Source: Psammoneis japonica (Eukaryota). From it: a stretch of 62,566 nt of DNA. Both the position numbers and the translations under genes were made by a program. The notes beneath the pieces are model-generated. The model worked only from the letters and a program-made list of their open reading frames with translations. It made no database searches and was not told the DNA's origin. The DNA lies in contig QPGO01000207.1 of assembly GCA_008632985.1 (NCBI GenBank), positions 62,001-124,566 of the forward strand, written 5' to 3'. Shown piece after piece: positions 11,230 through 37,411 of this stretch (positions are counted from its first letter, which is position 1; each line of letters opens with the position of its first letter).

Positions 11230-11681
11230 ACCAACGGTATTCGTCCTCTCGACATCTTCGTTGAGGAGGCGATGCACTTCCGAGATGCTGTGACTTAAAA
11301 TTAGAGACAACCTTGAGACGCATACCTAACTTGCCTTCCCCTAACCGGTGTATGAGGGTAACGAGGACATCAGATAATGTGCACATTGCTGTCAACTTTG
11401 CTTTGATCATCTTTGAGATAAATGCTGAGGATTCCGCTTCGATACCGGTACTTAAGAGGACGATGTAGAAAAAAATAATGCACACACCTGGTCACGACAG
11501 AAAGAGCCAGAAGACACGACTTCGACAAATTACTCTCTACTAGCTAGAGAGTAGAGAGTAGGTAGAGAGGTCGGTATTGTTACAAAATTAAGAGATATTT
11601 CTCGACAATTTTCTGCCTCTTTTCAGGGCACCGCCTTCCGCAATGACCACAAATTCCGAGATATAATATGATACAATGCAT

Positions 11682-14052: not shown

Positions 14053-15142
14053 GTTTGTGATTCGCGGTAGTTGAGCAGTGAACTGCCGCCATTCAAGTGC
14101 GGCATGATTTTGCATCTTAAAATCGAAGTTAAGCCCTACGCTTCAGCAATTCTTCGGTGTCTTGATGTTGTGTTTTGTAGTGGCACAATATATTTGGTCT
14201 GCACATCCGTGTTCCAGAGCAATCAGTTGGTAGCTTAGTGCTTCATCAATGCCACTCTCTCTTCAAAGTAAACAATCGCCAAGCATCACATCGCACCGCA
14301 GGGATTCCTTGGCACTTCAGTCGTCAATAAGCTGCGGTGTCAGCCTGTTGTGCACCTGTTGTACAGACGTGTTGGAGAGTCAAGGGTCAGCTCACCACAA
14401 AGCATGGATGCAATTATCTGCCGCTGGCTGACGTGATTCTCAAATGTGATGGTTTCATGGTCCTCCCCTCACCATGCCAGCCAGACACGGTGTTGCCAAA
14501 AAGTGAGCGAGCCACAGGAGATGGCCTTTCTGACATGCACGGTTTGCAATTCCCCATTGCTCACATCAACAGCTGACAATAATTTGTCTGGCTTGCACTG
14601 GCAACATGCCAAGAAACAGAAAGGGGGAGAGAGAGGCAAGGGCTGAAAAGGAAACACACTCTTTGTGGCCTTCTGTGCGTCGTGCACTCATCCTCTCGTT
14701 GTCCTCCTCATGGGTCTCTTGCTCCCTCCTCTGCGTGTCACCCTCTGCTCTCCCCTTGTTGGTGGGGTGAGAGCACCGTCATCATGCCAAGAGTGCTGGA
14801 GATGGGCTGCAGTGTGTGCACCACATTTTTGTGTGACACCCTTGCAGAGACACAAAAGAGCAGCACACGAAGCTGATGCTGCCATTTCTCCAGTGTGACA
14901 GTGTGAAGGCCTCACCCATTTTGTCATGCATTGGAAGCATTTCCTGTTCTCTCAAAAGAGGCACTTGCTTGCATTGTTTTCCTTTTGCTTGTGCACCAAG
15001 AATCAAATTGATTTTTTTTAAATTGATGCCAATTGGAAAAAGCCCGTTGCAAGATGTTTTTGATGCCAAAACTGGCATTGGGCCCAAAATTGAACCACCG
15101 CAAAGACTTTTGGAGCTGGCGTGCTGTTTTTGTGGTGCACTC

Positions 15143-15365
15143 CGAGTAAATCTAGCTGCCGAATGGGCTCAGCCACTCACAGTCTTAGTGCGATAACACG
15201 AACACAACCGACAAGATGCTTCTGGGCCTGTTGCAACTACAACGGATGCAACAAGTGAGACCGGTCGATGGTCATGGTCACTTTCCCACCGACACCACGT
15301 CACAGTCCCGCCACTTCAACTCATAGAGCGCACCAGACAGTCTCTGACACATTGGATTTCACTCG
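15143..15365 (-). repeat. 3' LTR of the Copia element (223 bp); PPT GAGGGGAC on the minus strand at 15373-15366
   Basis: Aligns to 21573-21794 with 17 substitutions and 1 indel (hand count). Confidence 0.92.
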
Positions 15366-18300
15366 GTCCCCTCGAAATGCACCTGACTCGTAAGGCACAA
15401 TTCGACCCAATGCTGCATCAGTGATCTAGCTCAAACATCTTGACTCATTGATCGACGTAAAACCCTTGCCAGGGAAAAGCCGCCAATCCTTTGTGCATGG
15501 TGCAAACCCTCACCAGGGAAGAAACTCACCACCGCTTCACGCATCCATCTTAACATGAACTTGTCCAACAGAAAATTTCGCCTGACAGACGACATGACCT
15601 TCGTGAATGGATTGCCAAGGTTTGTCTCTGTTCCCTCCTTTGCAATCCCAACAGTCCCCGCAGCAACAGCTTCGCGGTTGCGGTGACACGCAATGGAGTG
15701 ATGCTTCTTCTTGAGTGTAGACTCAGGAACAGAGCAATTCTTGTGGACGGCCTCATTGTCACAGAAGACATTTGTTGGCCCTTCGATCGGTGCTCCAAAC
15801 ATTCGAAGCTTGTGTCGCAGACTCTCTGCGAGCTCGATGGCATTCTTGAGTGGAACGATCTCTGCTTCAAATGTGCTGGCCTCCATGGCATTCTGATGCT
15901 TCGAGTGCCACACAATGGGTGCCCGGTTGATGAACATCAAGATGCCTGTGTGGCTGCGGTGATCGGCAACATTTCCGGCATGGTTGGCATCCACAAAACA
16001 ATGTGTCGACACTGCATCACCTCAAGCTGGCGGTGCATTTGTCGGAATGGCTTCTCTTGCATCTCGGCAGAAGTCGCGCCAGTCGCACTTCATGAATCGT
16101 GATTCATCGATCTTGGGATGAGCCGGATTGAATGCCACTTGGCGCTTTGGGACCTGTTTGAGGCACGCAAAGACATGCAACACCTGTTCCAGATGACCAA
16201 TGCGAGGGAGAGCGAGGTGAGCAGACATCAACGAAACCTCCAAATGGATGTCCACTCCACCGATTTCCACCGCCCAAACCAGCACACCAATCAGCTCTTG
16301 ATGATGGTGAAGTCCTTCAGCGTCCAACTCGCCAGCAGCATCTAACTCGGGTTTGCATCCACTGCTCAATGGGGTTGTCGCCTTGCCAGGCAGACATTTC
16401 CCCTCCTTGCCAAGCCTGTCCTCTACATTTTGGACAGCGGACTTGCAGCACTTCTCCGCAGACATTGCCCAACAGGCAGTCCCATCGGCTAAAGTCATCT
16501 TGGAAAGCGCAGCACCGAGAAAGGAATCCGGCTCGGCTGCCTCATCACCCTTGAGCTTGAACTTGGACCTGATGCCATCCATCGTCTTCATGGGTTCGTG
16601 GCCAATCGACAGCACGTCGTCCACGTAAACTAGAACGCACTCGCAGCACTCGAATCCGTCGGGTTTCACCGCAGGTCTCATCCATGCATCCGGATCAGCC
16701 TTGCTCGGTTTGCACCCTAGATCATAAAGCGTCTCCGCTGGAAAAGCCCTGAACGCTGCTCCGGAGCTCTTCAATCCGTGTGGGGCCCTGACCACAATCA
16801 TGATGCAACCTTCATCTTCGCCAAACTCGGACCCTGCTCTGGCCCAAATCTTCTCCCTGCAAGGGGCAGTGAGGTGGGCGTTCTGGATGTCACACGCAGC
16901 AAAGACTTGCAAGTCATTGAGCGCAGCAAGCGTCAGCGCAATTCTTGCCGAATCCCGAGAGACGACAGAGGAGCAAGTGATGTGTGCGGGGGTTTCAGTG
17001 GTGTGGCCTCCAGCCACCATGCGAGCTTTGCGGCGGAAGTTTTCTCCCAACTTGACATCAAAAATCATGTGGCACTTCACTTCCTGGAAAACAGGCACCA
17101 TGTCCTTAAGCTCCCCTTCACACTTGTCAAAAGCAACCCGCACGTTCTTCATCTCCATACAAATGGCGTCCCACCACAGTGTGTTGCCATTTGTGCAATC
17201 GATCTGGATCGCCTCCTTGACACTCTTCGGGATCCGCATGCCAAATTTGTGTGTTCGTAGCCAGCACTTCGACTTGACCTTCGCAATGGAATGCTTGCGG
17301 GTTTTCATGACATGAGGAACCCACCAAGCAAACGCTGCCTCACCCGAGATCTTGCGCTGAATGGCGAACTCGGCAACTTGGACTGGGAAGCTCTCCTTCG
17401 CAATCTTCAAGTCGATCCAAGTCGTATTTCCATCCTTCCATTGGAACAAAAGTTCCCATCCTTTGGCAGTCTTGCGCCTCTTCCGAACGCCTCGCTCGGT
17501 CTCAAAGAATTCGGATTCAGGAACGTCCCCGTTGGTGCGGCAATCAACGATCTCATCGAATAAGACGTGCCGGTTTCCGTCCTCGTCGATCTGAGCAAAC
17601 ATGTTCATGGCAATGGAGTTAGCAGAGAGCACAGCATGGTGCCCATCAGGGCACTCTACCTCATACATCCTTGTGTCAAGGATGGGATTGTCATTGGCTG
17701 TTCCTGTCGGAACACCACTGGCATCTCTCAACCTCTTCGTGACACGAGCAAACTCAGGACCATTGTCATCTCGTGGAAGCGCAACCTCCATGTTAATGCA
17801 TCCCCAGTCCGCCGCCTCCGGTGAGGCTTCCTCGTCTTTCTTGTCGTCGTCGTCATTTGCTGCCTCCTCTGAGGATGTGACACGATCACACTCATCGAGG
17901 AATTCATCGTCGTATCCAAGGCAGTCTTTCCAGTCTTCGGGACTGATCTTACGATCCTCGTCATCGGGGAAATCTTGCTCCTTCAACCGTCGCTTGATCT
18001 CCTCGTCAAAACTGTCGAACTCTGCCTTTTTCTCTTGAGTAGCGGCTTCCAAATTGGTGACTCGTTGGACGGAAGTTCTCGAAATAACACTGCCTGTCTG
18101 TGTCAGAACATAATGCGACATGAGACTCCCTGTTCTGTGAGACACACCAAGCCACCTACCAAGCTTCTCGTCCCCTGGACCAGCATTCTCCCTGTGCCAG
18201 ACCCAATCGTAAAATCCAAAGTTGAGGTGCTCCGAGATGTCCACGGTCTCTCCGAGAACGTTCTCCAGTGGCACTCCTGCATCCAAATGATGTGCTCAAA

Positions 18301-21300
18301 GGAACGTGCGAGACATGGTCTCACATGTCCACGTAAATCCGCAGTCCCACAGTCGCCGCGGCACTTGCTTCTTGACCATGACACGGAACCACTTACGTCT
18401 GACCTCGCGTGCAACTCCTTCTGCAGGATTCTGGTTGTGTCGATCAGGTTCGATGACATGACAATCTATGCCCTCCTTGCGCACGGTCTTCATGAACTCC
18501 GTGCCAGGTTTTGTTTGCTCCTTAGATCCGTCCAACAGGAGTTTCTCTGGCACGCCAAATTCCTGGCAAAACGTCTTGAGAGCCTCGCCAGCCTTACTCT
18601 TCTTGTCCATGGGATAGATTGCAGCGAAGTGTTGCTTGTTTGTAAAGATCTGGGCATGTCGATTGCCCTCCAGCGAAACCACCTTGCCGTCTGCCGTGTC
18701 GGTTGCCCATTCACCCCGTAACCTGGGCTTTGTGAACATCCGATCGGCCCGACAGCGCCGACCCACAGGCATCAACGCTGACCTGATGAGCTTTTGTGCA
18801 GTCTTCTTGAGCGTGCTTGCTGCTTGCTTGAGTCCCATGCACCATCGTTCACTCAAGTCAGCAGCCGATGCGTCACTGTGTCTCTCCTTAGACACGAACG
18901 TCTTCGGGAGTGCTGAGTCTTCAGGTCCTTCGCCGATTGTTTCCGTGGCGGAGATCTGGACTGTTGGCTCCATTTCCACATTAACGGCAGCTGTGAGCCT
19001 TGATTGGACTTGATCAACTCCATGAATGAATCGCTCATCGCAACAGTCCCCGGATTGAGGGTTGCTGTGGGCAGGATCAGCTTTGAACTTGTGTGTTAGA
19101 TTGGTGTGGATCGTCGCAATTGACCGAACTAGCTCCATTTCCTCCTCCGCAGATCGTCGAGTTCCAACAGATTTGAACTTGACGGTCTGTGGATCCCAAG
19201 GTTGTTGGGAGGTCATCTGGATCTTGGGGCATTCGTGCAATTCCTGCTCTGCAGGAGTGCGAGTTGCCGCAACGACATTGGTCCCCACAGCTTCAAGCGG
19301 CATCATGAAAGATCCATCCTCAGCAAGGACACACAGTGGCGAATCGGAGCAGGGGTTGTCCTGAACCTTAACACCAAAGTGCCGCAGCTGGTTTGGGTTA
19401 ACCAGCGAGTGCTCCATGGACTCCGGCATCCATGAGCCCTCGTGGAAGACCAGAACAAAAGTTGCTCCCGATGTCGGTGAAGTCCACGCTGTGGCTGCCA
19501 AGACAATTGGGACACTCTTGATGGACTCGCATCCCTCGTTAAAAGGCGATGCGTCACATTCTCGTCCAGAACAACCCAAGAGGGTAAAGTTTTGACCAAA
19601 AACAGTGGTGTCAGCATGCGAATCCATTTCAAGACGCCCATGCTGTACCTTGCTCATGTCACGGATGTGGGTGATTCGTGTGGTGTCAGACCGCGTTGCC
19701 GAGACACGTCTCGTCGAGGTAACAACCTCACAGATGCGTTTGACACAGGCACGTGGATGCTGCTCCTTTGATCGATGCGGCTGTCCCCCGCCCCATTGCA
19801 GCAACCACAACAAGAAGTTTGTGATGCAACCAAGCAGGGTCCAGCTTGGCAGTCATTTCTGCTTTCCTCGGCGCTTTTCGCTGCGACCACCGAATGCGTC
19901 TCCGGCATTGTCTCCGTCTCTGCCGCCAGCCCTTGATTCATCATCGCCAGAATCGGCACTGACATTGGTGTTCAGGGCAGAGATTTTGCAGTTCGCTTCT
20001 TTAAGCTGCGACGACAGCTTCCGATTCTTCTTCTTGAGCGACTTGACGGATGCAGCACGGCGTTTGGTTGGTTTGGGTTGTTTGGCGACACCTGGATGCA
20101 CGCGCTCGTTGACAACCTTCTGTTTGTCCTCCTTGCTCAACTGGTGCCAGTTTTTGTGGCATCCAGTGTCAATGGATCCATCCTCATTTGTAAATGGCAC
20201 CACCCTCTCTTCCTCCTCCAGAGGCAACTGCGGCAATCGCACGACGATGCGCAATCGTCTCTGGAAGGGTGGCGACTTTGGCGGCAAGATGATTGGCCGC
20301 CGTGGTGAACGTGATGCCTCCTCCAAACTCATTCTGCGCCTTCAAGGTTTCAACTGCTGCTTGTAGTGATTGGTGCTGCGTCTTCTCAAAAAGGATCCGC
20401 AACTTCTGGGCCTCCGTTTTCGGTTCGTCGTTCTCGTCAAAAATGTTGAACATTTCTTGGAGCTTGTTTGCAAACGACTCAAACGGCACAGCGCGTTCAC
20501 TCTTGTAATGAAGGGCATTCTCCATGCGCTCGGCTTCAGAGACACGGCGGGAGGTGTTGCCTTCTCCCTGGCAATGGTCGCACAACGCCCTAAAGTCAAC
20601 TCGTCCGTTCTGTTCATTCTTGTGGTCCTTCAACCATTGCTCACTGGGTGTGCCCGTGGTTAGGGACTCGATGAGTAGATGAACCGTACGAGCGTCAGCC
20701 TCGAAAGCTGGGCCTTGGAGGGGTGCACATGCAATGCACTTCTGGACGAAAGTGTTGTGGCCTTGAGGTTCGGGTGCATCGTTTTGACGAATGCAACACA
20801 CTGACGGTACGCCAGAAACTCCCAGCACAATGCCAAGCATGTTCGTCAAACCGGTGCTCCACTTGACCCAATCCTTTTCGCTCTCTAACATTCCGGGCGA
20901 CGCCTCTTTACCAAGAGAGTCAGCAGCAGCCTTGGTCTGGGAGCGGATCTCGGCGCGACTAAGTGCCGTCTGGAGAGCAGCACGGAAAGTGGCTTGATCA
21001 AGCCCATCCAGAGTGGGGGTTCTCGCTCACGCGACCAAAGTCCTGAACCCAATGTACAAGAGCTTTGAGTCGACGACTGCGGGCCAAACCAAAATGAATG
21101 CGCCCTTCAGCAACCGTCCTCCTGGCGTACAAAGACGCAAGAGAATCGACATCCTCTTCCTTGAGGTCTTCTAAATCGTCAAAAGACGCAAAGTCCGCCA
21201 TGAGCGGGACTCGTTGAGCTGGATCAACAAATCCGATCCATTCGAGCGCTGTCTCGACAGGATCCGGAGGAGCAGCCGCCATGGTGGCACCTGTGCCAGT

Positions 21301-21572
21301 GGGAAAACAGAGTTATGTGAGAAATCATAAATTCAAAAGGATGTCTCAGTTTGTGTTGACGATGACACACAGCCATTAGAAGCATGGAGACTGGCCATGT
21401 CTCCTCACTGCTCGTGCATTCACTGATGCCAGGCGATGACAATCATCGTGCACCCTTCCATCGACCGGCATTCGTCGCCACAACCCTGCCACAATGGCAC
21501 GACCGTCTCTTTGCAGTTGTTCAACGCTTTTCGTCAAACTAAACTTGAGTCAACGACTTGGCTCTGATGAAG

Positions 21573-21794
21573 CGAGTAAATCTAGCTGCCGAACAGGCTC
21601 AGCCACTCACAGTCTTAGTGCGACAACGCGAATGCAACCGACAAGATGCTTCCAGGCCTGTTGCAACTACAACGGATGCAACAAGTGAGACCGATCGATG
21701 GTCATGGTACTTTCCCACCGACACCATGTCACAGTCCCACCACTTCAACTTGTAGAGCGCACTAGACAGTCTCTGATGCATCGGATTTCACTCG
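21573..21794 (-). repeat. 5' LTR of the Copia element (222 bp), followed by PBS-like CTTCATCAGAGCCA (21572-21559)
   Basis: Direct repeat of 15143-15365. The adjacent ATCAGAGCCA matches the tRNA-iMet PBS consensus TGGTATCAGAGCCA over 10 nt. Confidence 0.9.
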
Positions 21795-22827
21795 ACTCCC
21801 AGCAATGAGCAGCAACATGATGTGGCACTCATCTGTTGCATGACTGCATTCTTGTTTTCTGTGGGTGCATTCTTGAAGAAAGTGGCAATGCCTGGGCACA
21901 ATCCATGTTTTCCAGAGCAGACAAGTTCACTTGGTTGTCACAACTTGTCATCCAAAAACAAATCTTCATCATTGTTGCAAATGGCAAACTTCCAAGCAAA
22001 ATCATCAACCAGCTTGAAGAAGTCAGAATGACCCCTGAACTCATTCCCTCCAATGCTTTAACCTGCAGCATCATTGTTGGTGGTGTCGGCAGTGACATGG
22101 CCACATTCCTGTTCATCATCATGGCAACACTTTTCTGCCACTGCTTTGCTGCAATTCCAAGTCCAGCATTGTCAAATGGATCACATTCAGAGCTGTCATC
22201 TGAGTCAGAAGATTCCCATGGTCAACTGTCATTTTGCAAAGCAGGAGCTCCACTTGGTGGCACTGCTGCTGTGTGGCAGTGCTTGTTGAGCTGAGGCTGT
22301 GTGTGTGGTTGAGCCAACAGAGTTGGCAATTTGCAATGTGCCAGCTTTGCATTGAGCACATTTCAGCCACTGTTGGTGGCAGAGTTCTTGTTGCTGGCAT
22401 TGTGGCTGCCAGCTTGGTGGCAACTGGCATGCTTTGGTGTGGCCAATTTTGGCACTGTTGTGACTGGGGTGGATCCTTGTGCATCCTGGGTGTTGGTTGC
22501 CATGATGCAATGATGCTGCTTCCTTCATCAAATTGTTTTGTGTTTGTTTGTCATTTGGCAGCATGTGGCAAGACTGCACATCCTTGTCTGTCATCAACAG
22601 CAAAGATGACAGGCTGTCACACATGTTGATTGTGAACTTCCAGTCATTTTTCTTGTGCAGGCAAGAACTGACTGTGGCACCCTTGATCTGCGCTGTGCCA
22701 AAGTGCTCATTGGAGTGTGAGACTCTTGGCGCTCATGCTTCACAAAGAAATTGGTGGAAACAATGAGCTTTTTCTTGGCACGAGAAAACACATTTCTTGA
22801 CTTTTTTGCCAGTGGCAGCTGCACAAC

Positions 22828-25800
22828 AGTCATGAGTCAACAACCAAGTCTGATTCATGGATGATGCTTGCAGTCATGGATCTCAATTTCTAAAAGAAAT
22901 GTCTGTTGAGTCCTCTGGTGACAGCAATTGAAGTGACACTCATGACTGTCAGGTCAAAATGTCATCTCCTGTCAAATGTGAGATCTTCTTGCAATTTGCA
23001 TCTGCAGCACTTCTTGTTGTCTCTTGTTGCAATTGTCGTCCTCTGCACTGCATTGCACAACCTCAAGAGAGGCATCTCCCTCATCATCCACATGTGGTCA
23101 GTTGTGTTCTGAGTGGCTGCAGCCCCAACAATGCACTGGCGTCAACTCATGACAGTGTTGCTTCTGCCCAATTGTCTCCTTTCAGATGACATCCCATCCA
23201 ATGGCAATCTTGTCAATCCCATCCTCTCAACCAATCTTTTGTGTCGAATCCTCATCCAGAATCATGTCTGATCCTAACACTGCTGCTCCTGGAATGGATC
23301 CAGAAAATTTTGAGAAGTTTGCTGAGGCTTTTGCAGCCATGCAAGCATCCAATGCATCTCCACCCATCTCAGCCAATGCCTGTCTGTGGTGGATTGCATC
23401 CCTCTTGTGGTGTGCACCTTGGCGGGTCTCCCTCAGATGACCGCTGCAAGCCAAAAAATGCTCACACCCACCACTTTGTGTCTCAACATTGTCGCTCAAA
23501 GGCTGTTGACTCCATTGAGCAATCCCTCCATGAAAAACTTGCCTCGGCAACTGCTTTGAAGTTCAACGGTCAAATTGAGCTGCCCAGCGGTCCAAGTGCC
23601 AAGCTGGACACAAGAAAGACTTTGTCAAGACCATCCAAGACCTTGTCAAATCACATGGGCAGGAAACCTTCTGCCATCACAAGAAATCTGATGGCAAGAT
23701 TGTGTGACCACTCTCAACTGTCTTCATGACATTGCTGTCAGTGACCTTGAGAAGGAGCACAAGACTCAAAATGCAGCTTCTTCTGGCAACAAGTCAAGGG
23801 CTGTGATGATCATGAGAAAGATGACATTGGTCTCTCTCAACTCCTGGTCAAGTTTCACATCATGGAAATGTTCTACAAGAAGATCAAGGTGAAGTTCAAT
23901 CACATGACGAAGAACTTCAAGGACCTTCCGGGGTCAGTGTTTTGTTCATGATGACCCTGGACACTTGCAATGCAAGTGCCCTTGTAGATGTCAAGTCTGC
24001 CAAGGATGAACTGAAGGTGCTGTTGCTTGAGTCCCACCCAGGCAAGGATTGCACTGAGTGAGCTTGTGACCAATCAAAGCTTTGCATGACATCAAGATTG
24101 TGCAAACAGACTGTGTGCTGCCAGTTGACACAGGCTCTGCTGTTTAACCTGAGGTGTCCAAGACATCATTCGAGCTCTTCAACCATCAGGTGTTCTCTAA
24201 GATGGATGACATCAAGAAGATGGAGCACATGCATCAGCTCAGCAACCTGGCCAAAGTGCCAAACCACCTTGACTGTGCAACCTCAGGCCCTGTTGGTCCC
24301 TTGTTGGCTGCTGGATCACCAAGACCCATGGCAAGTGCATTGGTGATGAAGAATGGCCTGCTTTGGCAGCCAAACTTCCTGAGTTGAACAACACTTCCAT
24401 CAAAGAGAAACATTGTTGTGGATGTGGTGTGGTTGGATGCACCAAGCATGCTCATCTTCCTGTGTGCAAGAAGCAGTGTGCTGCAGCACAGAAAGCAAAG
24501 GCCGACAAGGCCAAGAGCACTGACATGACAGATGCGGACTTGGACAAACTGCCCAAGAAAGCAAAACCTTCCAAGCCTGCCTGGCATTTGTCAACAAAGG
24601 CTCCACCCTCACTCATGGCACACTCTGGAAATGGTGCGACAAGTGTGTCAACAAGGAAGCAGGTGAGACAGGTGTGTGCCAAGGCCATTGGAGTGCCAAA
24701 CATGCCAGCAAACATTCTCCTGCCTCCGATGCTGCTGCTTTGGCAAATCTGTCCACAGCACCAATCCTTCTTCAGGTGTCCCATTTGGTCCTCCTGAGCA
24801 GATGATGGCTCTGCTGATGGATGAGCCCTCAGACCACAATGAACTTGTTTGTTGTGGCATGTGTGGTGTGCTCCTGTCAAAGATTCTCTGGACAGCCCCC
24901 TGTGACTGCTTCAGCATCCTTCACTCCTGCTCCAATGGCCAAGAGAGAGACTGCCATGGCCAAACCTGCTCCAATCTTGGCTGAGATGGTTGACCCCAAA
25001 GACGCTGATGATTTCTGCAAGCACTTCAATGCTTTCTCCTCTTTTTTGACTCAGAACCGTCAGCTGTTGAGTTGTTTCTGGCCTGTGCTCTGCATGAGAT
25101 CAAGCACCACATGTGTTTCATGATGCTGTCTTAAGTCACATGGAAGGACTGTCAGATGGCATGTAAGACAACCTCATTTGCAAATCAAGCAACCTTTCTT
25201 TTGAAAACACATGTGAGAACTCACCTCCTCCCAGCATCCATTGTTGCAGGTTTGACTTCTACGACCCCAAAACCCAAGACACTGTTGATTGTCAAGTCAA
25301 GGAAGCAACCCAAGCTCCTGGCACAAGCTCCTGTGGAACTTTTTCAAGCTCCAATTTTTTGGATGTTTGCATGCTCTGGGAACCATTGACAGTTTCCCAT
25401 CCACTTGGGTGGTGTTGTCCAGGGTGATCATGGTCTGGGCATCTGTCTTCAATGGGCAGGTGCCCATGCATTCTTTCACCAACATCCCCACTCACTTTGC
25501 TTGTCCAGCTTGCAGGTCCACTCAATTGTTCAAGAGCCAGATGACAAGATTGTGTCAGATGCAGGCAGTTTGGTTGAATGCAACAAGGTCAAGGTGCGTC
25601 AAGTGCTTGCCGAATGGCGCACCATCCAGATCACTGCTTGAGCAAGAAATTTGTGCAGCTCTGGGAGGACAAACACTGTCCATCTAAGGACTCTTGTGTC
25701 CCTCCTGCTCTTAAACTCTGAGTCCTTCTTTGACACCTGCAGAACAGAAGAAGCCCTTGGTCCATTGCCAGCTGAGCCAAGCTGCTGCTTTGATGCTGTC

Positions 25801-28598
25801 AAAGAGCTGTGGCTGGACCATTTTTGTTTCAATGACTTGTCCACAACCAAGTGTGGCTTTGTTGACACCACTGCTTGGCAAGATCCTGTCAAGCCACTCC
25901 AAGAGGCCACAGATTGTGGAACTGCAGCTTCCCACCCATGCCTCCATGCAGGTGTTGACTGGGCAAATCCCACTGGATTGACTTGCCGCCAATCCTCAAG
26001 CCTTGTCAATCTTGCTTGCAAGCACCACTCCATCACATGCAACACTGGAGCCTCCCTGGCAATGCTCCTGATGTGAATGACTTCACCAGACCCCTGCAGA
26101 TCCCAGACAGTCCACTCAAGCTTGGTGGCATGGCTGATGGGATGACCATTGCCGGTGTTGGACCCACATCATGGTCACTTGCAATGCTGATGGCTCCAAA
26201 CTTGTTGTCAAGATGATGGTGCATCATGCACCCAAGGCTGAGCAATGCCTCCTGTTGCCCCAATGCCTGTTCAGCAAGAAGCATGGCACCTTGGAAAGCA
26301 TGGACAGTGATGAGGATTCGTTCAACCACCACCTGCCTTCACTCCTCCCAAACCTGCTCCTCTGACAACACCAACAATGCCAGAACCTCCTCCTGCCACT
26401 CTTCCAGAGGGAGCTCCTCCTCTGCACCATTCAAGTTGATCCAACAAGGGAAAGATGCAGTCTAAAAGGTTTGTGGACAAAATCTTCTTCCCTCCAATTG
26501 ACCCAAAAGACATGCCACATGGGACTCTGCAGCGCAGTTGGCACATCATCCAGCAACTCTGGACACCTGCATTAATTTGCAGACCTGCAATGTTGATGAT
26601 CCCAAGGTGTGTGCAACTGCCAAGAAGCAAACAGACCCTGACATGCTGTCATCTCTGCATGAAGCCATGCGCAGTCACAAGGCCAACATCAAATGGACCA
26701 AGGCTGTGAAATCAAGATCAATGCACTGCTCCACTGTCGTGCATGGGACATGGCACCAAGGACCAACAATGTGATGTGTTGCCAGGTGCATGGGCTTTCA
26801 AGCTTGAAAAACTCCCTGATGGTGCACCCTTGAAGCACAAAGACTGGCATTGTGTGTTTGGTGTTCATGGTGATTTGCAGAAACAAGGTGTTGATTTTTT
26901 GAGACCTGTGCACCATTTGCACAATGGCCATCAATTTGGCTTCTCCTTACAACAGCACTCAAAGAAGGTTGGACCACTTGTAGAGTGGACCATGCTGCTG
27001 TCTTTTGCCAAGCTGACATCAAGGAGAAAGTCCATGCAGAGCCTCCTGAGGGTTTTCAGCCAAGATCAGGTGCCGACTTGGTGCAAAAATTGTTGAAAGG
27101 CCTGCACAGACTCCACCAGTCTCCCAACTGCTTCTGTGAAAAGATGCACAATGGATCACTTAAAAGAGGATGGACTCCATCTGCCTCTGACCCTTGTCTT
27201 TATTTTGAGAAGGGCACGCTGCTGTGCATGGCACATGTTGATGATGCTGTGTTGCTGGTGCATCAGCTGAAGAAGCTGAGATTGCCAAATCGGGCATCTC
27301 CAACAATGAACAATGCCATGTCTTTGACCTGCATGATGAAGGCAAAGTTGGTGACTTTTTGGTCATCAAGATCCAGATGCTTGAGGATGGCCGATTCCTG
27401 CTGACCCAACCTGGCCCAGTTGAGAAAGCACTGCACACCACCAAGATGGAAAACTGCAATGGAGCTTCTGCTCCTGCACTTCCAGCACCTGTCAGCAGTG
27501 ATTCTGAAGGCCCGACTTTCAATGAGCCTGATGACCATCACTCCATGGTCAGCATGTTGATGCATCTAGCGTCTGACAGCCACCCAGACATTGCCTGTGC
27601 TGCTCACCAAGTTGCTCAGTTCTCCTTTGCTCCCAAGGCCTCACATGCTGTTGCTGTCAGCCAAGTGTGTTCTCTGTTGCTTGAAGGATGCTGCTGACAA
27701 GGGTCTCATCCCAGCACCCACTGTGGATGATTGGCCAGACTGTCATGTTGATGCTGATTTTGTGGGACTCTTCAGCATTGAAGATGGACAAAACCCTGCT
27801 TCTGTCAAGTCACACACCGGACATGTTGTTTGTCACACCAGATGTCCCATCATCTGGGTGCCCAAGCTGCACACCCTGGCAGCACTCTCTGTGATGGAAG
27901 CCAAGCACATCACCTCTCCAAGCAATTTGCACCCTTGTTTCCCGGTGCAAGATCTTGAAAGAAATCAACACAAATCTCTTCACACAGCTGGATGCTTGGA
28001 ACAAGGTGACCACCCACTTCAAGACCTTCCCACTGGCCAATGACAGCACCAATGCCTCACCCCATGCCAACCTGCCAGCAGCTGTTGTGTGTGAAGACAA
28101 TGCTGCTTGTCTCCAACTTGCACATGTGCCAGAATTGTTCCCACAAACCAAGCACACATTGGCATTCCATGCTGCCATTTTTGTGCTGAGGTTGAAGCTC
28201 TGGAAATCAAGATTGGGCCTGTCAGCTCTGCTGCACAGCTTGCTGACCAGTTTGCAAAAGGGTTGGCTGTTGATCTGTTCTGCATTGGTCTTCAAGCCCT
28301 CATGGGCTGTGACTGGGTGGCTCTCCTTCTTTTTTCAGTTGAGAGGGAGAGTCACAAGTCAACAACTGTTGAGTCTGATTCACCAATGATGCCCTGGTCA
28401 TGGATCTCAATTTCCAGAAGAAATGTCCGTTGAGTCTTCTGGCAAAAGTGATTGGAGAAACACTCACAACCATCAGGTCAAAATGTCATCTCGGGTCAAC
28501 CATGAGATCTTCTCACAACTTGCATCTTTGGCATGTCTCATTGTCTCTTGCTGTGATTGTCATCCTCTGTGTTGCATTGCACAACCTCAAGAGAGGCA
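22828..28598 (+). mobile_element. Older degenerate Ty1/Copia element; LTRs ~22828-23074 and ~28350-28598; integrase apparently deleted
   Basis: Diverged ~250-bp direct repeats and a PPT gttgagagggag before the 3' LTR. Relic motifs are CNTGAS (protease, ~26040), VLPGAWAFK (26775), AHVDD (YVDD, ~27232), HVDADF (27744), CEDNAAC (28089) and QLADQFAKGL (28237). Confidence 0.85.
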
Positions 28599-30099
28599 AC
28601 CCCTTTGCTGTCTTTGCAGCTGGTTACATCCTGAGTGTGCATGGCTGGTTTTTGTGGGTTAAACTTGCTGCATTTTCTTGAAAATCTTCCTCAAAAGCAT
28701 GGGATGAGTCTGGGGCATCAAAATGGCCTGCAAACAAATCTGCAATGTCTGTCTGTTGAACATGTGTCCCCAGAGGAGAGGAAGGTTCTTGGGGGAACAT
28801 TCCACTGCTCATTCTGGCAATGCAGCAGGATCCATCATGCTGGTGGAAGCAGTTTTGCCCAAAAAATTGTGCAAAAAATGCCATGCTTTCAGCAAGCTGC
28901 ACTGCTCAATGACAAAACATCACTTGAAGATAATCAAAGAGTAGAAATGTGTGTTTTTGAGTGCAGAAAATTTGTTGCTGCAGTCATTTGGGGCTTTGAA
29001 CTGACTCAACTGGAGATGGTCACTGAGTCAAAAATTTTGACACCAAGTGTGGTGCTTAAATTCACAGAAACACCAAGTGTGGTGCTTGTCTCTGATTGGC
29101 ACTAACTTGAAGCAACTGACAAAGAGCAAGAAAATGTGGTGGCTGCATTGACTTAATCTGAAAAGCAAGAGAGTTGCCCACACATTTGTCACATGACCCC
29201 CCCCCCACCTTCAATCCAGCATCCCCCAAATGCTCTTGTGTGTCAATGTCTTCTGACACTTCTCATCACTGTGACATTGGGCAGATGCTGACATCACACT
29301 CTGCCCAGTTCCTGATTGTCCTGTGCTCTCATCCAACTTGTTTTTTGTTTGTTGCCACTTCTGCTGGCACACGGTGTTGATTTGATCATTTTTTGTTGCA
29401 TGGTGCACAGTTGGCCTGTGAATGTTCTCCATGCCTTTGCTGGGGCATGCTCATCAGTTGTGCCACATCTGCATGTTCAAAGTCCAAGTTTTGCATTGGT
29501 CAAACACAACATCAAGAACAGCTGCTTTCTTGTCAAAAGTGTGCATGGATTTTGCAGGTGAGCTGACTCCTTTTTGCATTGATGGCAAACCCGGTGAGTT
29601 TGTTTCCAAATTTCACCACACCTTGGTTGAGTTTCCTCTCTGAGAATGACTTCAATTAGAATGCTGTGCATCATGCTCTCTTGAAAAAAGCACACATCAC
29701 ATGGGCACTTTCTCCAATCTCCTGAAAGAGCTGGTGTGCATCTGTTGAAACAATGGGCAGGTTCAGTCAAACAACAACTCAACAAGCGCTGTTGTTTGGA
29801 TCAGCAACTTGGGCTCTGTCTTCTTGATCTCTCAATTGCTTGGAGCACTTCCACCATGCTGGCTGACAAAGGGTTTGACTTGTGGTTGATGACAAAGGTG
29901 GTGGGGAGATGCTCACTTGGTGTGTGTGGTGTGCGGTGCATGATGAGAAATGCTGTGCTGGCTTTTGCAAGTTCACAATGCAGCTGGGCAAAAAAGTGCA
30001 TGTGTGAGATGCACAGACATCAGGATGACCACTTTCCAGTCATGAGAGCCTTGGTGTTTTCATTGCACTGGGGGTTGGAGATCCTCAGAAGCAAGAGAC

Positions 30100-32450
30100 G
30101 GGCCTCGCAGAGCTTCCCCAGAGCCATGCTCAAGAACCTTTGAGGCCATTTTTTGGCAAATGATGACACCAAACACAATGAAAAAGATGCCAGTGGGATC
30201 AGAGGTGCACAAATCGTCTGTTGTCATTTGCACATGTGCACTCGCACACTCAGTGCGCGCACGAATGACAAAACGATGAGGTGGATCACGCGGTGCTTCC
30301 GGCTGTCACGACGTGCCACACCTGGCAGGAGGAAAACTGGATGAAGGCCTCTTGTGGAAGCAGCCGAGGTTGTTGACTTTGTCAACCAATTCAGACAAGG
30401 CACTGCAATGGGAAACAAAGAGATCAAGGACATGCTGATGAGGACACAAGCTCATAGAGACTCAAAAGAAGGCCACCATGATCTCGGGATTTTGAAAGTG
30501 ACCTCTAAGATGACAAACAACCACATGACATTGGCAGCTTGCATCATCCCAACCACCCTCACAGAACAAGCTGTTGTCAAATCGGAGGTCTGTGAGGTTG
30601 CTGAAAAATCCCTTTGAAGCACAGCCGCTTTCTTGATGGTTGCTGCCACCACCATGTTTGAAATTGGCAAGCTCCAGACTGGTCGCTCACCAGTCACCAA
30701 GGCAACTCAAGGGGCACAAACCTTCAAGCGTGTTGCTTCCCAATGCTGTGGTGGCCTGTCAGTCTGCCCCTTGCACTCTCATGACATTCATTCCACCGAT
30801 GACAGTGGACTTCATTTTGTCTCCAAGGTGACAGAACAAGGATGCAGCTGGAGAATGCCAAGCATGATGGTGAGGATGCAAGCACTCGATCAAAGTACAA
30901 GCAGTGCAGCAAGAGCTCTCTGATTGGACAACAGGTCCAATTTGCCTGGACTGCAATGGCAGATGGCACCGTGGCATCTCCATGTGTCTCCATTCTTGGA
31001 CTGAATGACAGAGAGCTGCCCAAGGAAACCTGTCCAAGCAGTGTGCCAGTCATTTCACTGAAAGGGACAGCCATTGGAGGGTCCGACTCAAGTGACACAT
31101 CAGTTGGTTGAGTTGCATTTGTCCGCAAGGGGGGGCACCAAGACAACAAACTTCAAAAATTGCCGCAACACCGTGTGCCGTCCATGTGTCGAGTCAAAGC
31201 GCAATTTGTTGGAGGGAGTGCCAATGCCAGAAGATGAAAATGCTGTGGGGTGGCAAGATGGTGGTGGTCCTCAGCTGAAGGTGATCACAGCTGAAGAGTC
31301 GATGGAGAAGGATGAGGAAATGAACCTCACAGCAAACAAGCACTCTGCAAGCAGAAGCGCTGCTGATCAGTGCGCTGACCTCATGAGGATTTTTGCTCTC
31401 ATGCACGTGGAACACAAGAAACTTGCTGCCAAAAAGCTCCCCATGATCGGTCACAAGAAACATGTTCATCATGTCTTCCATGAATTGCAGACATCCAGTC
31501 AATCAATCTGTCCAAAGACAAGCTCAATTCTGTGATGGATCTGATCATCTGTGTGTCCGAAATCTAAACCAAGTCTGTCACTCCCACTCGCATTCATGAT
31601 GGCTTTATTGCTGCTGGTGCCATTGACTCAGAAACGCTCGAATGGCCAGACTTCAACATGATTCTTGCAATGCTTTGGCGCAAGATAACATGGCAAGAAG
31701 TTGAGTTGATCAAGAATTCATTTAAGGTGATGATGGATGTGCAGTCAATGTTTGGCAAGGTGCCTGAGACACTCTTTGATGAACTCTGATTTCCTGAGGA
31801 CGAGGCTGCCAATGGCACAAAGTGACCAAGACGTTCTGAGTCCAACGTTCACTCCCACACCATGCATCTGTCAGCAGACAAAGTGCAAAAGGCAAGAGTT
31901 GAGAAGATGCTTCTAGAGGCAAGGAAAATGCAAGGTTGTCTTGAGCAAGAGAATCTTGCCATCATCAAGCTCCTGGCTCTCAACAAAGAAGTTGAGGACA
32001 AGCCACCAGCAGACTGAATGACAGCAATGCACCAGCATCTCTCTCAAAGCTTTAAAGCTCCCCAGTTGGCAGCCTTCATCCATGCGCGTCTCTTTGTCAT
32101 GGGAAAGAAGCCAGGGAATGCTGAGTGAAATGGCATGAAGTTCAAGAATGTGAACAAAGGCACACCGGGGATGGCAGAGATGGGAGAGGACAATCTCTTG
32201 ACATGCACCAAGTTGTTGCTCAACGATCCTGTTGCATTGAAGAAAAAGGAGCCAGAGAGCACAGAAGATGAACAGAGTGACATCAACTGCACTCCATCTC
32301 TCATTGACACAACCAATGCAAATGAACCAGGAGCCATGGATGCACAGTCGAAGGGCAATGACCTGTCAGGGGATGAATGCTGGATGTCTTCTGTCAAAGA
32401 AGAGATCCATGGTGCAATGTTTCCATCTGGAACAATCGACCCCACTCTCC
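30100..32450 (+). mobile_element. Degenerate transposase-like relic, possibly pogo/DDE_1 family
   Basis: Collinear ORF pieces containing WQDGGGPQL and KHSASRSAADQCADL, resembling the D..G and P..T...QPLD segments of DDE_1 transposases. Many stops. Confidence 0.35.
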
Positions 32451-33559
32451 CTGGTCATGTTGATTGCCTTGTGTCACATCTGCACCTTTGCCACTCAGTG
32501 GTTGGTGATTGCAGACTTTTTTGTGTTGGTCGGGCAGTCGGGGGGGTCAGGCAGTTGGGGGGTTGGGCAGTTGGGCAGTCAGTCCATCCAAATTAGAAAG
32601 TGTGTCTCTCTGATTTTGGAACGGCATGGGTTGTTTAGTGCAAATGCATTGTTTGGATTTGCAGGATGATCATTGAGGACATTAGAGGTCATGGGGACAT
32701 CCTAAAAAATTGGCAAATTCCCTGCAATGGGTGCGTGGAACTGTTTTTTAGGAGAGCTTGACAGTGCTGTAAAATTGGGATTGCCGGCATGCCACATTCA
32801 CGAATGTGTGCAGCTTTGAACAAAGACAATTCATTGTGAATTGCACATGAAACAGTCACATTAGAAAAACACATTGAACAACAAGTGAGTTTGTGTGATG
32901 TGCCATTTTGGTGACAAATTGGACAAAAAAAGTGTCCGTGCACCTTGCCACAGCCCCACAAATGGCATGAGCCATCAAATGTGATGGTCATCCGCATCAC
33001 CGGTGAGGTGGCCACACCACCTGGCACATGCATGCAGGCAATGAAGCATGCAACGGCACATGCTGTGCACACACACACAAAGAAAGACAAGTGGTCAATG
33101 CTCCTTGCAGGCCTGGTTTTTTCCTGACGTGCGTTTTTTCCACGCATGGTGGGGCAAAAAGTGGTTCGATCACCAAAATCTCACACAACAACATGATGCA
33201 TCATCAGCACATCACACAGCTCTCTTTCAAAAGCAGAGCTGTGACACCTTGACTTGCTGCTTCCTTCTGAATCTACAATGTCCGATTCATTTGTGATGGC
33301 AAGTAAAGTGCAGCAGAACTGTGGGTTGTGGAGAAAATGTGTGATTTAGACTTACGACCTCAGTGTTTTTTTTTTCTTTGTTGTTGCCGTCAGGTGTTTT
33401 GTCATTGGCTTCTCTCAGGATGAATTTTGCCCGGCATTTGTGCCTTCCCAGCATCAAACATCTCCCAAGTTACAACATGTCAAAGGGGTCCGGCAGTGTC
33501 ACAACTGCAGGTTGATTGAATCCAAACAGGTTTGGTTGCATGTCTTGTTTGAGTGATGC

Positions 33560-34100
33560 AAAATGGTGGGCAGTTCTCACAAGCTTGTTTTTCTCTGTTG
33601 TCACAGTTTGTGGTTTGAGCAAATCAAAGCAACACTCTCATGGACTCTGTTTTCCATTTGTTGCGCCATTGCCACAGGAAGTGTCTGTCAGTTGATGGGT
33701 CTGAATTGGGTTGGTTTCAATTGTTGTTTGGGTGAAACAAAACAGCACTCAGTTCTCATGTGCTTGCACTCTCTGCTTTTTACAGTTCAAGGCTTGGATG
33801 GCTGCATGTCAAAGAATTGTTGCACTCTCACAGGCTCCATTGTCTGTTTGTTGTGTCATTGTCACAGGAAGCATCTGTCAGTTCATTCAATCCAAATTGC
33901 TTGGGTTGCATCGGGTGTTTGGATGATGATGATTCACAATGGTGCACAGAGCCCCATGTCTCATGAGCTCATGTTTTCTCCACTTTGTAACAAGAGTGTG
34001 TGGTTTGGACAGCATGTGGAAGATAAACTCTCACGGACTGTGTTGTTTGTTTCTTGCACCATTGCCACAGGCATTGTCAATGGACCTGCTCCAATTGAAG
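33560..34100. repeat. Diverged tandem repeat, about 3 copies of ~195 bp
   Basis: actctca..g.ct....t.t...tt.ttg..cattg.cacagg recurs near 33633, 33824 and 34028. Confidence 0.55.
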
Positions 34101-35908
34101 CTGGATGAACTGTCGTGTGTGCATGCATGGCAGTGTCAGTGTCTGCAGTTTTCCATCCTTTTTGTGGATGAGATGGGACAGCCATTTGTTGCTTCTTAAC
34201 AATGTGTGGCAATGAACAGCAAGGCAAGATTGAAAGGTGCATCATTGTTGTTGCTCTCCTTTGCCAACATCCTCTTTTTTGTTCACCCGTTTCACCACCA
34301 CCTTCAATCCCTCCCACAATGCAACATCCATGGCTTTTGATGCCTGCTCTGACAATGAACCACCCTTTCTTTCCACAAAGGTGTTGGACCATGCACTCCA
34401 TGATTTTTTTGTGAACAGCAGTCTTGTTCTCTTTGCAGCAGCTGGAGGAGTCAAAAGTGGCTCGCGCAAACAATCGTCATTGTCGCCAACACAGAGCTGG
34501 TCCTTGTCAGACTTTAAGAGTTTTTGCAATGACTTCAACCTGCCCCAGACTGTCCTCAAATTGTTTGACACTCTTGATGCTTTGCTCTCCAGATTCTGAT
34601 GAGAACAGTGGCCATGTTGGGTTGACGGGTGAATCTCATCTAGAGACTTAGACCACCTCCTGGTTTTATGACGTTTTGCAGATCTGTCATGCACAACACA
34701 GCCCTCACAGCTTCCATGGTCTGTTCTCCTTTTTTGGACAATGGAAAACATGGTGCAAGCAGTCAAGTGGTCGCATTGAGCATGACACTGACACGGACAC
34801 AGGTGCACTTGCATGTTTTGATTGTTGCGGCCAAGAGGGAACATGTCCTCTTTGTTGCAATGCTCGCAACACAGCTTCAAAATGGCAAGAGTTTCTGGAT
34901 GGCACCTGAAGTCACTCTCCTTCTTGTCATCTGACTCATCAGCTCCATTCAAAATTGCCTTGCACACAGCACTCAATGGGCAATGGGTGGCACCAATGGA
35001 CCGGTCCATGCTGGAACAACATGCTCATCAGCACTTGCATCATCTCCTTCATCATCCACTGCTGCTGACAATCTTGTGATTTCCCGAGCTGTCCTCTCTG
35101 AAGTGAAAGAATCAATGATGCCTTGGACATCCTTTCTTGATGCCAACGGCACTTGTGTGTGTCCGTGTTTGTTGTCCAAAGCAGCACTTTCATCCACGAC
35201 AACATGTTCACAATCATGCGCACAATGCCCATGCTGTGGGCAGCATCTGCATCCATGGGAGCGGCAATGTTGCCAAATGTCCCTCCAACCCCAGGCAACA
35301 GCTCCAACTGAACATGCCCTCCATCATCTGCACTGAGGTGTGTGGACTGCCTCACTCCTGTCCTCTCCATCAATTTGAGGTAAAAAGAATGATGCCCCAC
35401 AATGACCAATTCACCTTTTCCTTTGAACCCCCCCAAGCAGACAAACAAATGATGCTCTCAATGCAACAGCAATTTCTTCATCCCATCTGGAGTGCGACAA
35501 TGACCCAACAATGGATGCAGCATTTGTGTGTCAAAACAGTGCTTTGCAATGTCGGCAAAGTGCTTTTTGCATTTGCTCCAATTGCATTGGTGCAGATCAC
35601 ATGCCAGCAACTGCAACCTTGGCATGTTGTGTGGAGCATCTGATGTCAGCACAAGTGATTGCGTTGTCGGGTGTGGCAGACTGTAGACACAAACTTGTCA
35701 TTTGGCATGCATTGCATCATGACAAATTTGGAAAAATTTGGAACTTTGCCCCACAAAAATTCTCTCGCGTGCAGCACATTGTGACAGAGGCTTTCGCAGC
35801 CCATCCACGTCCGCAAGCCACCTCATCGTTTTGTCGTTCACGCATTGATTGCATGCAAAGAAGCACACGCACAGATGACAAGACAATTTGTGCACCTCTG
35901 AGGTGCAA

Positions 35909-35968
35909 GTGTGTGTGTGTGTGTGTGTGTGNNNNNNNNNNNNNNNNNNNNNNNNNNNNNNNNNNNNN
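35909..35968. repeat. (GT)n microsatellite running into an assembly gap (N at 35932-35968)
   Basis: Seen directly. Confidence 0.95.
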
Positions 35969-37411
35969 GGTTTGTTTGGGTGATGCAAAGCAGTTGGTCA
36001 TGCAAACAGAAATTCAGCCCCAGAAAAAGTGCCAAGGTTTTGAGCTAAAAAAGTCTGCAATGACCACAAACAAGACAGGCTCAATTGACTCACAAAACAA
36101 TTGGAGGAAAATGGAAATCACAGCACAAGGCCAGGCAAGCTGGGAAAAAAAACCCCAGTGCAAAAAAGAGAGTGAGAGATCTTGAGAAAGATCTGGCCAC
36201 AGCTGTCCAATGGCGTCTGACAAACCCTCCATGAATGGCCTGTCTGTGTCCATGCACACATGGCAATCTGCTGACAGCCTCAACTGGAGAAAGGGTTTGT
36301 GCCACAGCCACATGCAGGGAGTTCATTTTGTTGGCTGAGCTTCCGCTCAAGGAAAGGCCAGCATGCTGCACTGTTGTGGGTTGAAGCACCCTGTTTCAGG
36401 AAACTTGACAGGATGAAAATGATCAAGTGGTGGGCAAGTGGATGCTGGTTGGCTCAACAGATGTTTTGCTTCTGTGTGCAGTGCTGTCGAGAGCTGGTGG
36501 TAGGCACAGAGAGTTTTCCTTTGAGACATTGTGCAACCTTCCAGCGTGTCTGGGCTCTGGATGATGGACTCAACAGCACAAGCTCTCTCTGGAAAAAACT
36601 TCAAAGGAAGTGTCAACATTCACACTCCAGCACTCTGGGGCCCTCTCTTGAGCAGGTGCAGCAGATGGAGAGGGCCCTCTGCTACGGTGGAGCAGCCCTC
36701 TCTCCACTGGACAGTGGATCTGCGGCACGGTGCACTGCATTGCATGGCCACAGGATGACGTCAGGTCCGTTTCGAGTGACCAGTCTACTCGATCGAACAC
36801 CCAAAAAAATAAGTACCGTACGCACCCACCCCGGGACTACCGGCACCGGTACATACATACAGTGACACCCTCATGACAACAGCTCGCCACCGTTCGCTAA
36901 TTACTTCTATGTCGCTTTCTACGTCAGAAAGCACGTCCTTATTTACTAAGCGACGTGGCAATAATTGAAAACATGCGCACTTCGATTCGCCGGCTTACGC
37001 ACAAACGGACGTTTAGCGGCGTCTTGATTTTGTTTTATTACAGATATGTAGTTTCGATATCTGACTTAAATTCCGATACGTTGAGTTGAGCTTTTGATGA
37101 CCCCAGCGGTGTCATCTTTTTGACAAGTTGACACCCCTCGAGCATTCTCAATCACACCCAAGGCAGGAAGAAGCGAGAAAGTTCACAAACCCCGCCAAAA
37201 TACTGCATGGCTCGTAGATGCTTCAGAGCATCATCTTAGTCCCAGTTTCTCACGTTCCTGACACCAATTGTGTCACGACTTACAACTCTCGTTTCAACGG
37301 ACCCGGGCATCAGTTCACTTTGTTCTCACAAACTTCACAAGATTGACAGGATCAAAGCTTCACGAAGTTCCCTCCCGCCTCAAAATATTTTCGTACACGT
37401 CTCATACAAAC

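Follow-up and report, generated by a model that had tools for sequence, protein, structure and literature searches.

TpA-directed hypermutation as a probable DNA-level process in mobile elements of the diatom Psammoneis japonica

We describe a 62,566-nt stretch of the genome of the diatom Psammoneis japonica (assembly GCA_008632985.1, contig QPGO01000207.1, positions 62,001 to 124,566 of the forward strand), referred to below as the window, in which the dinucleotide TpA is almost absent from four blocks of mobile elements and normal in the gene islands between them. On balance, we consider it probable that TpA within integrated mobile elements of this diatom is turned into TpG or CpA by a process that acts at the level of DNA and halts at the element boundaries. 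As far as comparison of sequences can show, the changes are post-integration, two-stranded, TpA-specific transitions with a preference for a 3' pyrimidine, and they are bounded by element edges. By the same comparisons, the process needs a 5' T and spares AA, outpaces CpG decay within the same elements, and hits the two strands of one site independently.

TpA depletion of the transposon blocks and direction of change

TpA content was expressed as the ratio of observed dinucleotides to those expected from base composition (o/e), in 1-kb bins and as sums per block. Together, the four transposon blocks hold 244 TpA versus 2842 expected (o/e 0.09), and the three gene islands 694 versus 1063 (o/e 0.65). 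Block 1 (1..5755; 25 TpA versus 374 expected, o/e 0.067; CpG o/e 0.55) is followed by gene island 1 (5756..14329; 365 versus 582, o/e 0.63; CpG o/e 1.04) and by block 2 (14330..36810; 144 versus 1420, o/e 0.101; CpG o/e 0.41). A 1.7-kb stretch of normal TpA (36811..38532; 93 versus 120, o/e 0.78) lies between two mutated blocks, the second being block 3 (38533..51940; 61 versus 691, o/e 0.088), after which come gene island 3 (51941..57084; 236 versus 361, o/e 0.65) and the most decayed block, block 4 (57085..62566; 14 versus 357, o/e 0.039; CpG o/e 0.04). In the 1-kb bins, the ratio was 0.00-0.15 over 1-5000, 22000-36000, 39000-52000, and 57000-62566. Bins of 14000-22000 gave 0.14-0.28, and those of the three stretches with genes 0.5-0.84. 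The longest run free of TA extends over 1355 bp (39922-41277).

The missing TpA is matched by an excess of TG (o/e 1.51-1.81) and CA (1.65-1.99) in the blocks, compared with 0.97-1.17 in the islands, while the ratios of AT, AA, and TT, and likewise of AG/CT, are the same in both. All six block boundaries are step-like, with the change completed within ~30 bp. Around 57085, the nearest TAs on either side lie at -4 and +266; at 5755, TAs restart at +6, +14, and +37. An earlier note on this DNA, made from the letters alone, had already described the near absence of TA and the enrichment of TG and CA, and the edges that it gave (5755, 14330, 36810, 38533, 51940, and 57085) proved right within tens of bases. 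It had also stated that deamination of 5-methylcytosine (5mC) cannot remove TpA, which holds, but it understated the shortage of CpG that accompanies that of TpA in these blocks (CpG o/e 0.04-0.55, versus 1.02-1.04 in the islands). Since CpG is low there too, part of the TG/CA excess is CpG decay, and two processes feed it.

The direction of the change can be read from conserved tyrosines. Block 2 carries a relatively young Copia retrotransposon of 6.65 kb with long terminal repeats (LTRs) at 15143..21794 on the minus strand, whose polyprotein frame (15557-19036, minus strand) has only 2 stops in 1160 codons. When its reverse transcriptase (RT)/RNase H part was aligned with 120 homologues (54-64% identical) and columns with Tyr in at least 80% of them were taken as conserved, the window copy kept Tyr in 1 of 14, reading Cys in 8, His in 2, and Phe in 3; conserved Phe (13/13) and Trp (12/12) were all retained. 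Across the whole frame, aligned with the 44 full-length intact homologues among these 120, 446 of the 523 conserved columns were retained, with Tyr kept in 4/23 (12 Cys, 4 His, 3 Phe) and other residues in 442/500 (Fisher p 1e-13). The 76 changed conserved residues comprise 29 single TA>TG or TA>CA steps (20 and 9, respectively), 8 CpG steps, 25 other single steps, and 14 that need more than one step. The ratio of Cys to His at conserved Tyr was 12:4 (p 0.08), or 19:8 (p 0.05) when a second Tyr-depleted Copia protein from public data (P0101, see below) was added; this strand bias falls short of significance, and flank context can explain it.

A second protein behaves in the same way. The tyrosine-recombinase open reading frame (ORF) of the GC-rich element in block 3 (39087-40325, minus strand) has 1 Tyr in 413 amino acids, compared with a median of 2.35% Tyr in homologues (77 of the 150 listed, those of at least 300 residues). 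Both of its conserved Tyr columns read His, including the position in the peptide MLRHLH, and 3-4 conserved Arg also read His. All eight peptide strings that the earlier note had quoted as Tyr read as Cys or His were found where implied: ACVDDI and GKFRCCRL at 2959-3075 (minus strand), FECCECVLVY, APHGLKSSG, and HHQELIG at 16286-16786 (minus strand), AHVDD at 27231 (plus strand), and RPGEH and MLRHLH at 39255-39776 (minus strand). Judged by these alignments, the change runs from TA to TG or CA, the direction proposed there.

Timing, strands, and target context

When a retrotransposon inserts, a single template gives rise to both of its LTRs. Those of the Copia element (15143..15365 and 21573..21794) share 205 matches and differ at 17 bases, all transitions, made up of five double differences in which one LTR has TG and the other CA, two TA/CA differences, four differences of CpG against TpG or CpA, and one other. 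Each LTR has lost 2 CpG and the two share ~11, from which a CpG ancestry predicts ~0.2 such doubles, compared with the 5 seen. This excess implies that ancestral TpA was changed on opposite strands in the two LTRs, and hence that the mutations arose in the already integrated DNA and on both of its strands, as the earlier note had proposed for the strands from mixed outcomes within single reading frames.

In the other transposon pairs, too, no double difference is more frequent than TG versus CA. A repeated segment of block 2 (28350-28598 compared with 22828-23074) contains 10 of them in 249 bp. In a 2.9-kb pair of recombinase-element copies, 61-68 sites are discordant between TG and CA, of which a CpG-ancestor model explains ~34, so that CpG decay accounts for about half of the discordance in this pair. 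The direct repeats of the recombinase element (38706-38907 and 44372-44573) retain 1 TA each in 202 bp, and among their 11 mismatches, 10 of them transitions, there are one double and two TA singles. Being nearly free of TA and having few differences of the TA type, they indicate that most of their TpA loss is older than the insertion and that partly edited lineages kept spreading.

Duplication alone does not seem to attract the changes. Gene island 3 contains a tandem duplicate of ~500 bp and 90% identity (53137-53633 and 53643-54194) with 443 matches, 49 mismatches, normal TpA, and 0 TG-versus-CA doubles; although a single example, it argues that the target is mobile-element DNA and not duplication as such. 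The term "repeat-restricted" used in the earlier note is therefore apt insofar as the changes are confined to mobile-element DNA and too broad insofar as this duplicate was spared. The duplicate overlaps an ORF (53612-54412) that has no Pfam match.

The process distinguishes sharply between TA and AA. A-to-G changes at codon position 2 were found in 12/23 conserved TAY codons and in 0/46 conserved AAN codons (Fisher p 1.5e-7). Among the contexts of TpA, survival relative to the islands was 0.35 for TTAA, 0.34 for CTAA, 0.23 for GTAA, 0.14 for CTAG, 0.10 for ATAA, 0.08 for CTAC, 0.06 for GTAC, 0.04 for ATAG, 0.02 for ATAC, and 0 for ATAT, which was not seen once versus 140-233 expected under two baselines (140 from the islands). 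These values were fitted with a model in which hits on the A of one strand are independent of those on the other and the hazard of each A depends on its 3' neighbor, using either the islands or 80 related Copia loci (see below) as the baseline. The model fits all ten NTAN classes with hazards of 2.3-2.5 for T, 1.3-1.4 for C, 0.7-0.9 for G, and 0.4-0.5 for A, and the resulting order (TAT > TAC > TAG > TAA) is the same with either baseline and in the young Copia element alone. Paralogues provide a further comparison: 16 single TA differences between them have identical flanks, 8 of these are informative, and in 7 of the 8, the changed pair lies beside the sensitizing flank. The outcomes at Tyr codons agree with the flank rule as well, if weakly. 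Written as a motif, the apparent target is T-A-Y, with a change of A>G; read from the partner strand, a T>C change at R-T-A describes it just as well.

CpG decay shares the blocks and their sharp edges, and it too yields TpG and CpA. However, it does not remove TpA, and the two signals separate in elements of different age. TpA and CpG o/e are 0.21 and 0.84 in the young Copia element (GC content 0.53), 0.12 and 0.83 in the recombinase element (38533..44573, minus strand; GC content 0.59), 0.06 and 0.18 in the older, heavily decayed elements that fill the remaining ~15 kb of block 2 (21795..36810), 0.07 and 0.23 in the older elements of block 3 (44574..51940), and 0.04 for both in block 4. With CpG still at 0.83-0.84 in two TpA-poor elements, TpA loss runs ahead of CpG loss in identical domains. 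The converse was found in two related Copia loci from metagenomes (L074 and L043), where CpG o/e is 0.01-0.02 and TpA o/e is nevertheless 0.38-0.47, so that even an extreme loss of CpG does not entail a loss of TpA; by their composition, they look like heavy methylation decay in other hosts that lack the TpA process. CpG decay is thus a separable second process that cannot remove TpA, and neither it nor the repeat-induced point mutation (RIP) of fungi can produce the pattern, a point on which we agree with the earlier note. TpA loss and CpG decay are compatible with a putative common tie to the silenced, methylated state. When the Copia element was compared with contigs of its family, the best-supported family-wide differences were mostly TG or CA in the window versus CG in the family.

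Candidate mechanism, rival explanations, and known systems

TpA-only hypermutation has been measured in the chlorarachniophyte Bigelowiella natans (bioRxiv preprint 10.64898/2026.01.13.699255), so the kind of pattern is known, although the earlier note had not recognized it as described. Of 302 new single-nucleotide mutations in mutation-accumulation lines, 231 lay in two integrated viral regions; almost all of the 231 were A>G or T>C, and every one of these was at TpA (10.64898/2026.01.13.699255). The rate was ~6e-7 in the viral regions versus 3.5e-10 elsewhere, a de novo rate ~1000-fold higher in the targeted regions and episodic between lines, and the mutations were found with Illumina reads in resident single-copy DNA (10.64898/2026.01.13.699255). 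Among the TpA-depleted coding sequences of that genome, reverse transcriptase and DDE endonuclease domains are overrepresented; the enzyme proposed, a homologue of ADAT2, is unproven (10.64898/2026.01.13.699255). The text of that report makes no mention of diatoms, stramenopiles, retrotransposons, or CpG (10.64898/2026.01.13.699255). Full-text literature searches, with most subscription journals outside their coverage, returned no report of TpA hypermutation in a diatom.

In B. natans and in the window alike, nearly all changes are A>G or T>C, at TpA alone and giving TpG or CpA according to strand, in foreign or integrated DNA only, and the rest of the genomic sequence is normal. In the window, the LTR mismatches are transitions in 17/17 cases, with CpG transitions present too; TpA alone is depleted (o/e 0.04-0.10, with AT, AA, and TT unchanged and with TG-versus-CA doubles between copies), and the depletion is limited to mobile DNA (island TpA o/e 0.63-0.78). 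The hosts are distant, a rhizarian on the one side and a diatom on the other. In B. natans, a rate was measured, and TpA loss in the viral regions is well short of saturation (TpA Rho 0.45), whereas in the window, we see an end state with 90-96% loss. The Results and Discussion of the B. natans report give no flank preference beyond TpA, although its supplements may hold contexts. We regard the two as the same kind of process in different lineages. What the window adds is the post-integration discordance of LTRs, the strict specificity for TA and not AA, and the T-A-Y order.

Other known systems resemble the pattern less. Fungal RIP changes CpA to TpA, creates TA, and is triggered by duplication. 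Like the process described here, it is a dinucleotide-specific hypermutation of mobile DNA in the genome that acts on both strands and ruins coding capacity, but its direction is the opposite: in the window, TA is destroyed, C>T at CpA was not the change found, and the gene-island duplicate was spared. Very-short-patch repair, which depletes CTAG in Escherichia coli, shares a T>C bias at a TA-containing word, produced by machinery guarding methylated cytosines. It is weak and acts in one pentamer context, unlike the present case, where all NTAN contexts are affected and ATAT is the most sensitive. Animal ADAR and APOBEC enzymes likewise drive hypermutation of retroelements by deamination, and ADAR prefers a 5' U (10.64898/2026.01.13.699255). 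They act on RNA or cDNA before integration and in one direction, unlike the changes seen here in resident DNA and on both strands.

Regarding the chemistry, our tentative preference, held at slightly less than even confidence, is that an enzyme directed by silencing marks deaminates adenine to hypoxanthine. The reaction would take place in duplex or transiently opened DNA, and the hypoxanthine would be read as G. The enzyme might be a TadA/ADAT2-like or another deaminase-fold protein, recruited by the marks of silenced transposons (5mC, histone marks, or small RNAs), and its action would lead to the loss of Tyr codons, TAA and TAG stops, TATA-like promoters, and TA target sites. TadA and ADAT substrates have an invariant U33-A34 context. 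By analogy, the need for a 5' T recalls U33-A34, while the +1 preference found here has no obvious match in it. A wider proposal, which we consider doubtful though conceivable, is that diatoms and chlorarachniophytes share an old enzyme-driven defense, in which adenines of double-stranded nuclear DNA would be edited at T-A-Y and the editing aimed at silenced mobile and viral DNA by the silencing machinery. Its enzyme would be an adenine editor of DNA that is natural and context-specific. Such a defense would be RIP-like with opposite polarity, would outrun CpG decay, would leave half-edited elements able to transpose, and would be widespread among stramenopiles, alveolates, and Rhizaria.

The main rival, unlikely in our estimate, is directed at thymine. 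In silenced DNA, the T of TpA (R-T-A) would undergo oxidation or hypermodification, as when a TET/JBP-type dioxygenase makes 5-hydroxymethyluracil, and would then mispair with G or be misrepaired, giving T>C. 5-Hydroxymethyluracil in dinoflagellate DNA favors TpA. All the sequence evidence is symmetric, since a TA>CA change appears as TA>TG on the complementary strand and the flank rule can be written as R-T-A as well as T-A-Y, so that the two chemistries are indistinguishable by sequence; on the other side, the sole experimental precedent proposes adenine deamination, itself unproven. We find it quite improbable that transposon RNA (by ADAR-like A-to-I editing of double-stranded RNA) or cDNA was edited and then inserted, with the block edges simply being element ends. 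The sharp edges and the recombinase element, in which most of the TpA loss predates the duplication of the repeats, would fit such editing. It predicts identical edits in both LTRs, and those of the Copia element instead differ by 5 doubles and 2 TA/CA singles, which are independent post-integration hits on both strands; in B. natans, de novo mutations appeared in single-copy DNA that was already resident in the genome. To our knowledge, ADARs are confined to animals. Still less probable is collateral damage from repair, in which T:G mismatches left by 5mC deamination recruit patch repair of the polymerase eta (Pol eta) type that writes G opposite T. CpG decay does occupy exactly the same domains, and as correct repair keeps the CpG but leaves collateral changes, TpA could decay the faster of the two. 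However, the motif of Pol eta is WA, and AA is untouched (0/46 AAN>AGN versus 12/23 TAY>TGY), with the ratios of AA/TT and AG/CT unchanged, which argues against this polymerase, one of the candidates put forward in the earlier note.

An artifact, in which a modified base in silenced DNA is miscalled and TA written as TG or CA, seems about as improbable as repair damage. The platforms of the assembly and of sequencing run X1 are not on record, and random miscalls could mimic TG-versus-CA discordance. We compared the window with assembled contigs of X1, which has ~50-fold depth on single-copy flank. Contigs at single-copy depth match the TA-poor sequence, from which they differ 4-14 times in 420-800 bases (for example, 4 each at 23702-24122 and 28033-28523). 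Over all comparisons of the window with X1, there were 209 A>G, 210 G>A, 202 C>T, and 205 T>C differences and 185 transversions. A systematic miscall of TA would raise G>A and C>T, and these (412) are balanced by A>G and T>C (414), which disfavors an assembly bias. The flank rule and the gradient with age (TpA o/e 0.21 in Copia, 0.06 in older blocks) are biological in shape, and the same signature was obtained by Illumina sequencing in another alga, B. natans. In the single-copy gene flank at 12500-14500, X1 contigs differ from the window at ~0.3-2% of sites, whereas a contig of a second run, X2, agrees with it at one such site; these differences suggest two haplotypes or strains in the sample.

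Least of all do we credit a native composition or selection, by which the element families would simply be TA-poor. Scanning metagenome contigs with an alignment of Copia proteins gave 80 related Copia loci (41-63% identical) with TpA o/e of 0.38-1.05 (median 0.66). None of the 80 was below 0.3, a count to be read with the fact that a Tyr/Phe position forms part of one of the two patterns used for scanning, so that edited copies may be under-sampled. Conserved Tyr has become Cys or His, and the LTRs have diverged at such sites. That both copies of the recombinase element are TA-poor is the only support that we found for a native composition. For Copia, these results refute a native composition. 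Family members as TA-poor as the window copies, one of the outcomes that the earlier note had named as speaking against its proposal, were partly found for the recombinase element, given that most of its TpA loss predates the duplication of its repeats; set against distant homologues, this element nevertheless shows a change of Tyr to His.

Returning to a DNA-level conversion of TpA within integrated elements, several points weigh against it. Given the older TpA loss in the terminal repeats of the recombinase element, the changes have a complex timing and did not come about in one saturating burst upon integration. Among homologues from public proteins, 1/180 for Copia (P0101) and 1/77 for the recombinase (P0421) carried the signature, which is thus not general among diatom-type elements. 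The flank hazards presume ancestral NTAN frequencies like those of the baselines. A>G is indistinguishable from T>C on the partner strand, and a thymine-directed chemistry fits the same data. Finally, the library type of run X1 is unrecorded and its material is probably the sample that was assembled, which makes the support that it lends less than fully independent.

Two public proteins show this loss of Tyr to Cys or His. P0101 (ENA-sourced, 647 amino acids), a Copia RT sharing 62% identity with the window copy, is not encoded in the window, and its pattern of Cys and His differs from that of the window Copia. P0421 (301 amino acids) is a recombinase homologue without any Tyr. The nearest relatives of both are normal, and among 60 new homologues of P0101, none was low in Tyr.

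If the process is real, the window represents a second, distantly related algal lineage with TpA-directed hypermutation of mobile DNA, near-saturated over islands of retrotransposons, and a single-species observation becomes a candidate general defense. It would also allow a comparative test, in which deaminase-fold genes shared by genomes with the signature and absent elsewhere are sought. Dating based on LTRs will overestimate the ages of edited elements.

Elements, annotation, and genes of the window

Stop-free ORFs of the window were searched against Pfam. Among the transposon ORFs, matches were limited to a Gypsy-type RT remnant in block 1 (2602-3177, minus strand; RVT_1, E 9.6e-13) and an old Copia RT remnant in block 2 (26895-27401, plus strand; RVT_2, E 1.3e-12); the RT of the young Copia element, the recombinase ORF, and four recombinase homologues had no Pfam match. 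The Copia RT of the window (P0001, 16025-18295, minus strand) gave no RVT_2 match at E 0.01 or better, while an intact relative 62% identical to it (P0002) gave E 7.7e-18, so edited elements can escape transposon annotation based on profiles. PF07727 was present in all 120 homologues listed for the Copia protein.

The loss of stops affects gene calling as well. Per kilobase and strand, the blocks contain 2.2 TAA, 1.4 TAG, and 23.6 TGA, and the islands 8.9, 10.8, and 19.9, respectively. With TAA and TAG lost and TGA nearly the sole stop, long, overlapping false ORFs arise on both strands and can be called as genes. One example is the 1029-amino-acid ORF at 41298-44384 (minus strand) in the recombinase element, which overlaps ORFs of the plus strand, has no Pfam match, and may be spurious.

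The best relatives of the Copia protein, among the matches listed, are 62-64% identical, and its named relatives come from the diatom Fragilaria crotonensis. Summed read-contig depth over the element is 30-60x that of single-copy flank, a figure that is not a copy number. The element is preceded in block 2 by an old fragment (14330-15142). The recombinase element of block 3, which may be a Crypton or DIRS-like, is accompanied by an inverted, CpG-decayed copy at 49122-51938.

Gene island 1 encodes, from Pfam matches, ClpB (9324-11229, plus strand), an alternative oxidase (12059-12808, minus strand), and ribosomal protein L21 (13156-14052, plus strand). The best named relatives of ClpB are all from diatoms (69-81% identity). 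Its coding sequence lies in two overlapping frames of the plus strand (9324-10634 and 10465-11229), which switch between the AAA lid with the start of AAA_2 and the remainder of AAA_2 with the D2-small domain; the overlap suggests an intron or a frameshift. Block 2 includes a scaffold gap of 37 N (35932-35968), just before which the translated text is an alternating run of Cys and Val, which would fit a candidate TG-type microsatellite.

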